This document shows positions 14,718 to 20,000 of a DNA stretch of 20,000 nucleotides, piece by piece. The translations under genes and the position numbers were made by a program. Position 1 is the first letter of the stretch, and the number at the start of each line of letters is the position of its first letter. This stretch comes from an uncultured virus (IMG/VR IMGVR_UViG_3300007171_000042) (Duplodnaviria; Heunggongvirae; Uroviricota; Caudoviricetes): positions 52,384-72,383 of IMG/VR virus record IMGVR_UViG_3300007171_000042. The stretch is one strand, 5' to 3'. Under the pieces are notes generated by a model. The model had not been told where the DNA came from and made no database searches. It saw nothing but the letters and a program-made list of their open reading frames with translations.

Positions 14718-14781
14718 TGGTCGACTATGAGACTATAAATAGCCTTTAGGCATAGTGCGTTACTCTTATGAGTAGGTATGG
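14718..14781 (+). ncRNA. Pistol-class self-cleaving ribozyme candidate
   Basis: P1 TGGTC/GACTA, loop ACTATG pairs with CATAGT, TAAATAG junction, GCG, P3 TTACTC/GAGTAG, GT cleavage dinucleotide, P2 CCTT/ATGG. Confidence 0.75.
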
Positions 14782-18278: not shown

Positions 18279-18366
18279 GTCGAAATGGTGGAATAGGTAG
18301 ACACGCAGCACTTAAAATGCTGTAATCTGAAAGATTGTGCGAGTTCGACTCTCGCTTTCGGCACCA
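18279..18366 (+). tRNA. tRNA-Leu(UAA) with encoded CCA
   Basis: Acceptor GTCGAAA/TTTCGGC, anticodon arm CAGCA-CTTAAAA-TGCTG (TAA at 18313-18315), long variable arm AATCT-GAA-AGATT, T arm GCGAG-TTCGACT-CTCGC, discriminator A then CCA. Confidence 0.95.
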
Positions 18367-18385: not shown

Positions 18386-18652
18386 ATGGATAACGTACAA
18401 GATGTGCCAATGACACCAGCACTAGAACCAACAATGGAAAAAGTAGCTGAACTAAAAGAATGGAGACCTTCAAACAATGAAGCTCTTCGTGAGTTTGAAA
18501 TCAACATTAGATTTTTAAGCAGAGGATGTGTTGTAAGAGTGGGATGCAAAGAGATTGCATTTGAAGATCACACTAATGCAATGGCTGCTATTAACAATTA
18601 CGTTGCTAATCCTTGGGATGAACAACAAAAATGGCGTAAAATTTTAGACTAA
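18386..18652 (+). CDS. Hypothetical protein
   Basis: 88 aa, A-rich leader, TAATG-coupled to the RyR-domain gene. Confidence 0.75.
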   Translation: MDNVQDVPMTPALEPTMEKVAELKEWRPSNNEALREFEINIRFLSRGCVVRVGCKEIAFEDHTNAMAAINNYVANPWDEQQKWRKILD

Positions 18653-19050
18653 TGAGTGGAACAGTAGAATTTCAAGGCACTCAAGAGGAATGGGAAGCTT
18701 TAAAAAAAGAAAACAGGATTAAATGGATTGCTTGTGTTTGTCATCAAGCTAACAAAGCATGGTGTGAATCTGAGGGAGATGATTCTCAAAAAGATTGGGC
18801 ATTTGCAGAAGACTGGCAACGTGATTCAGCAATTAAAGGAGTTAAGTTCCGCTTAGAAAATCCTGATGCAGGACCAGATGCACAACACAATGCTTGGAGT
18901 GCAGATAAAATTGCTGATGGATGGGTCTATGGAGAAGTTAAAGACGCTGAGAAGAAGACTCACCCTTGCTTAGTTCCCTTTGATCAGTTACCTTTGTTTC
19001 AGCAAAAGAAAGACAAACTATTTAGTGCTATTGTAGATGCACTAAAGTAA
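18652..19050 (+). CDS. RyR-domain protein
   Basis: HNAW...K...GWVYG...KD...KTHPCLVPFDQL...KD is the RyR repeat (Pfam RyR) signature. Confidence 0.85.
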   Translation: MSGTVEFQGTQEEWEALKKENRIKWIACVCHQANKAWCESEGDDSQKDWAFAEDWQRDSAIKGVKFRLENPDAGPDAQHNAWSADKIADGWVYGEVKDAEKKTHPCLVPFDQLPLFQQKKDKLFSAIVDALK

Positions 19051-19058
19051 AGATCAAC

Positions 19059-19207
19059 CCTGTGGATAGAATCTGCAGGCCATGTACCATTAAGCATACC
19101 GTAAGATCTGCTAGAGATGGTCTTCGAGTTACTAGGAAAGCCTTAGGGTATAACTAGTAACAACCCCCAGTAAGCCTGCTTGATCAACAGAAACTGCTGG
19201 GGTTTTT
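19059..19207 (+). ncRNA. Four-element hairpin cluster ending in a terminator-like stem
   Basis: CCTGTGGAT/ATCTGCAGG, GGCCAT/ATGGTC, GTTACTAG/CTAGTAAC, CCCCAG/CTGGGG followed by TTTTT. Confidence 0.45.
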
Positions 19208-19209
19208 AT

Positions 19210-19368
19210 AGTCAGGTGGTGTAATGTTTATATATTGGTCAATCATAAGAACCCACTATATAACTTGGGCACACAATGTGATGCTGCTATCCGTAAGCAA
19301 AAACGGGGAAAGACCTTAGCAAGGTATGCTATAAACACATAGATACAGGTTTGAATCCTGTCCGACTA
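19210..19368 (+). ncRNA. tRNA-like RNA with expanded D and anticodon loops
   Basis: All four tRNA stems with canonical linker spacing: AGTCAGG, TG, GTGT/ACAC, A, ATGTG/CACAT, AGAT, ACAGG-TTTGAAT-CCTGT, CCGACT-A. Confidence 0.7.
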
Positions 19369-19369
19369 G

Positions 19370-19415
19370 AACAAGTAAATGGGGTAGTAGAAATATTACC
19401 CCAGTACTTGTTTTT
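19370..19415 (+). terminator. Long hairpin with T tract
   Basis: AACAAGTA..TGGGGTAGTA-GAAA-TATTACCCCA..TACTTGTT then TTT. Confidence 0.65.
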
Positions 19416-19437
19416 AAATTAAAAGTTCGTATATTTG
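19408..19437 (+). promoter_or_regulatory. Bacteroidota-type promoter for the HNH gene
   Basis: TTG-N19-TATATTTG, 7 nt before ATG 19445. Confidence 0.75.
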
Positions 19438-19444
19438 TGACTAC

Positions 19445-19861
19445 ATGGAAAGGTTCTTTAATAAAATAGAAAAAACAGATTCTTGCTGGATATGGAAAGC
19501 GGGGTTACGTGGTAAAACAGGATATGGTGTTTTTAAACTTAATGGAAAGACTATAGATGCACATAGACTATCCTATCAACTGCACAAAGGAGAAATACCT
19601 GAAAAAATGTATGTTTGTCATACTTGTGATAATCGAAAATGTGTTAATCCAGAACATTTATTCTTAGGTACTCCTAAAGACAATTGGCAAGACGGATTTG
19701 ATAAAAATAGAATAAAGTTATTAGGAGGAATAGATACTGAAAAATTAAAAAAACATCCAAGCATAAGTGCTTATAATAAAGGATGTAGATGTAGAGATTG
19801 TAAAGACTTAAAATTTGCAGCTCAAAGAAATTGGAGGGAGAAACAAAAACTCCTGTCCTGA
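19445..19861 (+). CDS. HNH homing endonuclease
   Basis: CWIW...GYG...AHRLSY...[20 protein letters not shown] motif plus C-terminal H-x4-Y-x2-GCRC-x2-C zinc-finger-like motif. Confidence 0.92.
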
Positions 19862-19867
19862 CTACAA

Positions 19868-20000
19868 TGAGTAAGAGATACTCAGAGTCTTTGACCTAAG
19901 ACTCATTTAAAAATAGGTTGGCAGAAAGTCTACGGCCAGAGTGGGACTTCGTGGGATAAAGGAGAGTGACACATCTCCTCCCAGTAGTGTTGACTGTTTT
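19868..20000 (+). ncRNA. Structured RNA candidate, possibly continuing past the window
   Basis: Two hairpins then a three-way junction (see findings). Confidence 0.45.

Follow-up and report, generated by a model that had tools for sequence, protein, structure and literature searches.

The locus described here raises the question of how an HNH endonuclease gene comes to lie within the 3' end of a tRNA-like gene, and why that 3' end occurs twice, once on either side of the nuclease gene. The window, that is, the whole 20-kb stretch of DNA that was analysed, is the terminal end of one 72,383-nt contig with 36% G+C, and the locus is 136 nt away from the contig end. The original prediction, made on the letters of the window, was an intron-less homing element that rebuilds a slightly altered 3' end; comparison with other viral loci makes it probable that positions 19346-19865 are a free-standing, intron-less HNH homing-endonuclease cassette that occupies the 3' end of a tRNA-like gene of a phage. 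From left to right, the cassette is made of a replacement T-stem/acceptor end changed at CCT^GAC, a terminator hairpin, a promoter block, the HNH ORF and the displaced original end; units with identical limits are found in unrelated tRNA-like genes from many uncultured phages, and cassette-free alleles exist.

Regarding its setting, a search of metagenome runs with words of the window found matches chiefly in freshwater, river and lake samples; run X1, which may be the source sample, has a Logan contig that covers 19000-20000 with 5 differences, so that the layout is not confined to one assembly. A 4787-nt contig of X1 reaches ~1.7 kb past the end of the window. By blastn against 50,697 phage records, 19051-20000 gave matches only to short pieces of the HNH ORF (14 records, none covering 80%). 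The features of the locus and of its upstream flank are the following:

18279-18366: tRNA-Leu(UAA) gene, upstream of the tRNA-like gene
18652-19050: RyR-domain gene, upstream of the tRNA-like gene
19051-19207: conserved non-coding stretch, terminating in a hairpin and a T run, upstream of the tRNA-like gene
19210-19368, + strand: tRNA-like gene, assigned from the shared 5' 17 nt, the identity to L177 and the related bodies
19210-19216, + strand: 5' acceptor strand AGTCAGG
19227-19264, + strand: D-loop insert of ~38 nt
19345-19361, + strand: T-arm ACAGG-TTTGAAT-CCTGT
19362-19367, + strand: altered acceptor 3' strand CC-GACT, followed by A19368
19356-19368, + strand: proximal (left) copy of the 3' end, TCCTGTCC-GACTA, one T short of the family consensus
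19371-19415, + strand: hairpin and T run, from a terminator-site search and covariation
19371-19376 with 19406-19411: outer stem of the hairpin
19380-19389 with 19394-19403: inner stem of the hairpin
19386-19394: conserved hairpin apex GTAGAAATA; the T run is at 19411-19415
19425-19444, + strand: promoter block GTTCGTATATTTGTGACTAC, from invariant columns in the cassette alignment
19430-19437, + strand: TAnnTTTG box TATATTTG, within the promoter block
19445-19861, + strand: HNH_3 endonuclease ORF of 138 aa (Pfam PF13392)
19851-19864, + strand: distal (right) copy of the 3' end, TCCTGTCCTGACTA, intact and separated from the T-loop
19865-20000, + strand: conserved pseudoknotted RNA, of which only the start is present because the contig end cuts the rest

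The tRNA-like gene and its duplicated 3' end

The tRNA-like gene has a branched body where the anticodon arm would be. Its 5'-most 17 nt occur exactly in 37 viral loci (pattern search), most of which run on to a T-arm ACAGGTTCGAATCCTGT and an end CCTGACTA; in most of these relatives, a long and highly variable region replaces the anticodon arm. True tRNA-Gln(UUG) genes with the same ends are present in L114 and, as read by eye, in L097 and L116, and the Rfam tRNA model gives part of the family scores of 34-40 bits. The body of the gene in the window (AATGTGATGCTGCTATCCGTAAGCAAAAACGG...) is also found in L173, L177, L178 and L179: the D-loop insert is absent in L178, L179 and L173, and L177 has 97.4% identity with the window over 19207-19362, the ~38-nt insert included. 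As for the identity of 19210-19368 as a tRNA, this was rejected: no cloverleaf with a 7-nt anticodon loop was recognised by ARAGORN or Rfam, which (at the gathering threshold and at E up to 10) made no call of a tRNA, an intron or a ribozyme in 18900-20000. The fold energy of the tRNA-like RNA was no better than that of shuffled sequences (z = -0.44).

The presence of the 3' end in two copies, as first proposed, was confirmed at 19356-19368, without one T, and at 19851-19864, intact. TCCTGTCC has exactly two + strand occurrences in the entire 72,383-nt contig, at window positions 19356 and 19851; the next bases are GACTA at the proximal position and TGACTA at the distal one, and the repeated part corresponds to the T-stem and the acceptor strand of the tRNA-like gene. 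From base composition, the chance expectation of 13 specified bases, with a gap of 0-1 nt, in the 630 nt downstream is 1.6e-5. The direct repeat is absent from the output of the repeat search because the single-base indel leaves only an 8-mer and a 5-mer of uninterrupted match, a stated limit of the tool; the inverted-repeat search returned the pair formed by the distal end and the 5' end of the gene, with 11-nt arms that are 91% complementary.

Regarding their pairing, every base of the distal CCTGACT (19857-19863) can pair with the 5' strand AGTCAGG (19210-19216), the two being exact reverse complements, so that the predicted 7/7 match holds. In a gapless alignment, the acceptor register is broken in the window, whereas L177 and L178 pair 7/7. 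For the proximal copy, the missing T and the possibility of a bulged helix (6 pairs and a bulge) stood as predicted, but the unconstrained fold gave this strand just a 5-bp terminal helix. The proximal copy is the working 3' end of the tRNA-like gene; since the distal copy, and not the proximal one, pairs perfectly with the 5' strand of the window, the distal copy is best read as the original 3' end of the resident gene, displaced. L138 gives a comparable picture in the T-stem, where GCAGG pairs perfectly with the distal CCTGC and merely through G-U with the proximal CCTGT. An exact search of the viral contigs with the proximal junction of the window returned 0 matches.

The original prediction also placed a terminator hairpin, a promoter and the HNH gene between the two copies, and all three were found there. 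The HNH ORF is the sole ORF of at least 60 aa in this interval; it matches Pfam HNH_3 (PF13392) with an E-value of 3e-12 and 46.4 bits (cut-off 24.8), and the HNH and endonuclease families of PHROG with E-values down to 1.7e-31. In an alignment of 20 sequences, H40, C58, H59, C61, D62, N68, H71, N80, C114, C116 and C119 are invariant, and the protein of the window keeps all of them; the Pfam and PHROG matches and the invariant His, Asn and Cys residues place the ORF among the nucleases of the homing-endonuclease families. A phmmer search of the PDB gave nothing meaningful (best E 0.26), and the AlphaFold2 model built from the 20-sequence alignment was poor, with a mean pLDDT of 61.5.

The hairpin follows the proximal copy, and its inner stem with the T run (19380-19403 plus the T run) is the sole terminator-like site in 19000-20000 (1 found, 0.4 expected). 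Among 12 aligned cassettes, the apex does not vary, and 7 of the 10 inner pairs have changed on both sides with the pair preserved; the site and the covariation mark the hairpin as the terminator of the tRNA-like RNA. As for the promoter, a scan for E. coli-type, or sigma-70-type, promoters found no site between the hairpin and the ORF; TATATTTG instead agrees with the -7 box of flavobacterial sigma-A, given as TAnnTTTG at -12 to -5 in the available text of PMC9723704. This fit hints at a Bacteroidota host and at a transcript start near 19442, the host being suggested by the motif alone. In the window, a 13-nt deletion brings the ATG directly behind the promoter block and leaves a leader of ~3 nt, which makes the expression of the HNH gene in the window uncertain.

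The promoter block is confined to the HNH loci and has a single occurrence in the genome; a regex search for cassette relics, defined as the block or the hairpin apex outside the HNH loci, gave none that was convincing, and a partial block was noticed by eye in L147. Its sequence GGTTCGTATATTTGTGACTACAAA is similar to GGTTCGAATCCTGTCCTGACTACAAA, and it comes in three classes that follow the local acceptor: TGACTAC where the gene has AGTCAGG, CATGACTAC where it has AGTCATG (L142 and L143), and TTGCTAA where it has AGCAAGG (L123-L125), with a poorer fit in L118 and L122. This resemblance suggests that the T-loop and 3' end may be present a third time, in decayed form, as the promoter block; the block may have been left over from an earlier arrangement such as that of L121.

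Recurrence of the cassette and its empty alleles

The viral contigs contain 26 relatives of the HNH protein at 66-82% amino acid identity, which make 27 loci together with the window; L144, at 54% identity, was left out of this set. The distal copy stands at the end of the ORF in 23 of the 27 loci and is absent in L121 and L123-L125. In 20 loci, it comes after the ORF's own stop codon (TAA in 19, TAG in L139), at it or within 1-2 nt; in the window, L118 and L119, the ORF has lost its own stop and reads into the copy. In the window, the final three codons and the TGA stop (19859-19861) are inside the distal copy, as the original prediction stated, and this arrangement is peculiar to these three loci.

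All elements of the layout, from the tRNA-like gene with its changed end through the GTAGAAATA hairpin to the promoter block GTTCGTATATTTGTGACTAC, are present in 15 of the 27 loci, and the others depart from it in several ways. In L128, L129, L136 and L140, only ~20 nt of the 5' end of the tRNA-like gene are retained and the hairpin is different; in three of these four, the strand is CTTGAYT, still able to pair with AGTCAGG. L122 has another hairpin, the upstream tRNA-like gene is absent in L120 and L127, and the contig of L141 begins within the ORF, leaving its left side not assessable. In L121, the ORF starts 24 nt past the tRNA-like gene, and L123-L125 have a tRNA-like gene, a T run and the promoter block; these are the four loci lacking the distal copy. 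L120 has another cassette-like end downstream.

Evidence that the cassette moves as a discrete unit, with fixed boundaries and in unrelated contexts, comes from two comparisons. The locus L133 has 99.6-99.8% identity with L134 and L135 over 553 nt, with limits at -121 relative to the ATG, where the T-arm starts, and at +18 past the stop codon, where the distal copy ends, and their tRNA-like bodies and right flanks are unrelated; L132 and L133 share 96.4% identity within identical limits. Moreover, run X3, which belongs to a different study, contains a contig of 13,212 nt that matches the window solely at 19346-19865, with 24 differences and 1 gap, and is unlike the window on both sides of this interval; no difference was recorded in 19356-19368, so this contig appears to have the same missing T. 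Two types of cassette can be distinguished on the left side, and their common part spans only from -52 to +18 (promoter block, ORF and distal copy). The target duplication of the original prediction needs one refinement: the repeat is not made anew at each insertion, because both copies move with the cassette (-121 to +18 around the ORF), and it is a built-in part of the cassette.

The empty, single-copy alleles that a homing element implies were found in 28 junction loci and in L177. The search for the predicted empty junction (TCCTGTCCTGAYTRCAATGAGTAAG) returned 28 viral loci, and all 28 are empty: the T-loop (...GGTTCGAA) stands directly before TCCTGTCCTGACTA, which is followed by CAATGAGTAAG (...GGTTCGAA|TCCTGTCCTGACTA|CAATGAGTAAG), and none of them has an HNH relative. 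L177 is the empty allele of the very tRNA-like gene of the window, with no HNH gene after it; its acceptor strands AGTTAGG/CCTAACT form an uninterrupted 7-bp stem (7/7 pairs) and differ from AGTCAGG and the distal CCTGACT of the window by a compensatory change of C-G to U-A. The homology between the window and L177 ends at 19362|19363, within the acceptor 3' strand. Lastly, in many contigs of runs X1, X2, X3 and X15, the match begins at 19851 and is preceded by ...GGTTCGAA or ...GGTTCAAA; these contigs are empty alleles of other family members from the same waters. The HNH gene is sporadically present, with homologous loci that have it and others that lack it, and the acceptor pairing that is retained in the spare end (6 pairs and a bulge) and compensated in L177 argues for a functional tRNA-like RNA family.

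The altered acceptor end

A slightly altered 3' end was part of the original prediction, and the comparison of occupied and free genes supported it. Free genes were taken from the 37 loci identified by the 5' 17-mer alone, with no condition on the 3' end; they correspond to 28 distinct sequences, reduced to 25 by the exclusion of L088, L094 and L095, in which no T-arm could be recognised. L100 was scored 7/7 by hand, and the acceptor strands of the window, L118, L137, L142 and L143 were also read by hand. Of 14 distinct occupied alleles, 12 have an altered acceptor strand next to the gene, against 2 of 25 distinct free genes (Fisher p = 1.8e-6, a figure that overstates independence since the occupied alleles are related by descent). 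Among the free genes, 23 of 25 have a gapless, fully paired 7-nt acceptor strand, the exceptions being L082 (+C) and L103 (6/7 pairs); among the occupied alleles, only L142 and L143 do (2/14). The changes of the acceptor 3' strand are of five kinds, and all but one of these affect CCT^GAC or the bases next to it:

Loss of T: the window
+C: L130, L137, L138
+C with A>G: L118, L132-L135
+T: L131, L139
Terminal GG: L126

The majority of these changes shift the register between the T-arm and GACTA by one base, and a bulged acceptor helix is still possible. The five different kinds of change are more telling than the Fisher figure.

Proposed mode of movement and comparison with known systems

If the locus is a homing cassette, its movement can be pictured as follows. 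During co-infection, the enzyme would cut or nick cassette-free alleles in the conserved GGTTCGAATCCTGTCCTGACTAC, and repair would then copy the cassette out of the occupied genome; the T-arm on the left and the copy of the 3' end on the right would serve as portable homology arms for any member of the family. The occupied allele would be spared at the proximal copy by the T-arm/GACTA spacing, which is off by one base, and at the distal copy by the loss of the T-loop half of the site. The spare end would preserve the acceptor helix, and the terminator and the promoter would keep both flanks expressed. As for the exact point of entry, an insertion at CCT^GAC is equally possible; in that case, only TCCTGTCCT would be duplicated, and the GRCTA that follows would mimic the acceptor strand. 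Some observations count against homing: the implied homology arms are very short (~15-25 nt), L142 and L143 are fully paired, L082 and L103 are changed though free, and variant layouts exist.

The main rival explanation is passive spread, in which the cassette is a passenger of recombination hot spots at the ends of tRNA-like genes, the HNH protein has another task or none, and the changed end results from drift. Such exchange does take place in this family, because tRNA-like modules are swapped at their ends without any HNH gene: L177 matches the window only over the gene, at 19207-19362, and has no HNH gene, so that recombination at the end could move the cassette passively, and L001, L002 and L007 have different tRNA-like genes at the same place; in addition, remoter HNH_3 relatives in cultured phages lie between protein genes. 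Drift, however, does not readily account for an acceptor changed mostly in occupied alleles, in five ways of which four fall at or beside CCT^GAC, nor would a passenger be expected to have a strongly conserved ORF with all catalytic-type residues present and identical boundaries in many contexts; on balance, passive spread is considered unlikely. A different origin of the repeat, in which a second, tandem tRNA-like gene was mostly deleted at the arrival of the HNH gene and survives only as the distal copy, is less probable still. Arrays of tRNA-like genes with the same ends exist in these phages (L001; L177 and L178), and the additional cassette-like end downstream in L120 would agree with it, but the fixed start of the distal copy makes a remnant unlikely: in 20 loci, the copy starts at the last T-loop base or within 1-2 nt, directly after the stop codon. 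Furthermore, nothing else of a second gene remains, the piece travels with the cassette, and it is the distal copy, not the proximal one, that perfectly partners the 5' strand of its own gene.

The least probable of the alternatives, to which hardly any weight can be given, is that the 494 nt between the copies are an intron and that splicing joins the T-loop to the distal end. In tmRNA genes, it is likewise the T-loop region that group I introns interrupt, according to the available text of PMC11915505, and the joining would yield a perfect acceptor stem. Yet Rfam reported no intron family in 18900-20000 at E up to 10, the non-coding sequence amounts to just 76 nt before the ORF and none after it, and a covarying terminator comes immediately after the proximal end; also, with the junction inside the repeat, the base before the 5' splice site is the same as the last base of the intron, which rules out the usual U/G pair of group I introns. 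A group I intron was rejected in that neither the ribozyme core (P3-P9) nor the splice-site rules were found. Two other types of mobile element were discarded as well: an integrase-type island, because there is no integrase and the HNH ORF is the only one of at least 60 aa between the copies, and a transposon with target-site duplication, because there is no transposase and the repeat, which moves along with the cassette, does not differ from site to site but is one and the same gene end throughout. The intron-less homing reading of the original prediction is instead supported by the comparisons, namely the empty alleles, the discrete unit, the altered end and the lack of room for an intron ribozyme.

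Taken as a homing cassette, the locus resembles several known systems in part. Genomic islands and prophages with tyrosine integrases and attL/attR sites integrate into the 3' ends of tRNA or tmRNA genes. As in these islands, a direct repeat of the 3' end stands at both ends of the element, the resident 5' part receives a replacement 3' end from the element's own copy, which restores the gene, and the displaced original end forms the far repeat; for such islands, the tmRNA gene is often used (PMC11915505, in the text available). The cassette differs in having no integrase, in its size of ~0.5 kb and in a replacement end that is not the same as the original, and its movement would presumably involve cleavage and homologous repair and not site-specific recombination. 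Group I introns with homing endonuclease genes are also found in tRNA genes. In tmRNA genes, the same kind of intron sits in the T-loop, as given in the available part of PMC11915505; these introns share with the cassette a mobile nuclease gene in the T-loop region and a structured RNA gene that is not destroyed. In contrast to them, the cassette has neither ribozyme nor splicing, and it is a duplicated end, not excision from the RNA, that keeps the gene whole.

As for free-standing nucleases, phage T5 has HNH endonucleases in its tRNA region, F-TflI, II and IV. Like the HNH protein of the cassette, they belong to the HNH family, are free-standing and reside in a phage tRNA region, a comparison made by description only; the heg genes of T5 are mentioned in the available text of PMC2248197, and no report of insertion within a gene or of a rebuilt end was found in the accessible literature on them. 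SegB of phage T4 is a free-standing GIY-YIG homing endonuclease from a tRNA gene cluster, and it recognises the T-loop motif GGTTCRANTCC of tRNA genes (PMC2330249, as far as its available text goes). The two systems have in common a free-standing nuclease gene among phage tRNA genes and a target within such genes that includes the T-loop motif; the available text of PMC2330249 does not describe a spare gene end or a flanking repeat. SegB differs, by the same account, in being a GIY-YIG and not an HNH protein, and its gene is intergenic, while the cassette lies inside a gene. From these likenesses, the cassette appears to work like a free-standing homing endonuclease gene with the topology of an integrase island, and in the accessible literature the search found no homing-endonuclease cassette described as having a substitute RNA-gene end.

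Another parallel concerns regulation. The promoter of I-TevI contains an operator similar to the homing site of the enzyme, and I-TevI acts there as its own repressor. A possible analogy with this operator is offered by the promoter block, given its likeness to the T-loop and 3' end and the way it follows the local acceptor; the block could serve self-regulation of the HNH gene, the binding of the HNH protein to its own promoter being pure conjecture.

The arrangement has some consequences. By bringing a spare, putatively self-resistant end, a selfish nuclease gene can settle in the gene of a structured RNA with no need of an intron, and this accounts for the short tRNA-end 'scars' that are met in the annotation of phage tRNA arrays. 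The enzyme probably reads ~20 bp of T-arm and acceptor sequence. The layout is a natural model for cut-and-rescue gene drives among viruses, and the cassette design is common to many uncultured lake phages. A broader proposal, held only tentatively and judged rather doubtful, is that the cassette is a natural 'cut and rescue' drive for the whole gene family: by splitting the sole sequence shared by these hypervariable tRNA-like RNAs, it would gain two portable arms of ~15-25 bp for entry into any member in any phage, protect itself through a spacing changed by one base, and possibly regulate itself by using a decayed third copy of its target as promoter.

Finally, the distal copy is followed by the conserved pseudoknotted RNA, which normally adjoins the tRNA-like gene directly and is conserved behind the 28 empty alleles. 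Its portion in the window (19865-20000) has 96.7% identity with positions 2772-2924 of L007, and Rfam gave no match for it in 18900-20000 of the window and in seven related loci. RNA-library contigs are present over 19865-20000, and none of those from X15 lies on 19238-19850. The complementarity between its loop and a downstream stretch is retained in 7 sequences (read by eye), and the intact distal copy might additionally serve the processing of this RNA.

Conserved stretches on either side of the tRNA-like gene

The tRNA-like gene is flanked in the window by the following two stretches:

19051–19207 (+): conserved and non-coding, with the RyR-domain gene upstream and the tRNA-like gene downstream
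19865–20000: conserved RNA, directly 3' of the end of the tRNA-like gene; also present in loci L145–L172

As for the upstream stretch, it had 84–87% identity with the related viral loci L001 and L002, and its 3' terminus consisted of a G+C hairpin followed by a T run; contigs from the RNA library of sequencing run X15 covered it at a depth of 39–83, and a search of Rfam returned no match. For the downstream RNA, which was covered by RNA-library contigs at a depth of 57–123, Rfam likewise gave no match, either in the window or in seven related loci. Its first hairpin is GAGTA-AGAGA-TACTC and its second is AGTCTT-loop-AAGACT; the loop of the latter is complementary to a stretch ∼12 nt further 3', and this complementarity is kept in seven sequences, as judged by eye.

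D-loop insert and changed acceptor ends

Three features concern the tRNA-like genes themselves:

Window 19227–19264 (+): D-loop insert of the tRNA-like gene, ∼38 nt, forming a hairpin
L082 2501–2590: tRNA-like gene with an extra C and free of HNH
L120 2574–2710: second tRNA-like gene, ∼160 nt 3' of the HNH cassette

The D-loop insert is common to the window and to L177, the cassette-free allele of the same gene; L178, L179 and L173, which share the gene body, are devoid of it, and in L132 its place is taken by another insert of greater length. Regarding the acceptor strand, that of L082 (CCTCGACTA) carries the same extra C as many of the alleles occupied by the cassette, yet the locus has no HNH gene; L082 could be the footprint of a lost cassette or, alternatively, a resistant allele. 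In L120, the second tRNA-like gene terminates in ...CCTTGTCCTGACGGAGTAAG, and because this terminus is similar to the changed end of the occupied allele L126, a second cassette may follow it.

Neighboring genes, arrays and a ribozyme

In relatives of the window phage, a phage-borne tmRNA gene directly adjoins the tRNA-like genes; arrays of tRNA-like genes and a spacer module occur as well:

L007 2225–2579, and L178 and L179 just 5' of the tRNA-like gene: tmRNA gene (ARAGORN; Rfam, 104.7 bits)
L001 4551–4985, and downstream parts of L177 and L178: arrays of two or three tRNA-like genes in succession
L001 4640–4725, L007 2578–2660, and upstream parts of L121, L122 and L139: recurrent spacer module

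The array genes have tRNA-type D- and T-arms with long variable middles, and ARAGORN called none of them in L001, L177 or L178. The spacer module reads GTGTTGTTCCCTTGAGAAAGGAA...ACAACA; after it, immediately 5' of a tRNA-like 5' end, comes the hairpin GAGGACTTCTCATCCTC.

In a phage tRNA array, L146 56–165 weakly matched YrlA, a Y RNA-like family (35.3 bits, E = 2e-4; gathering score, 69).

Finally, the window contains a further Rfam-recognized RNA:

14719–14781 (+): Pistol self-cleaving ribozyme, full-length match, 46.1 bits versus a gathering score of 34.5
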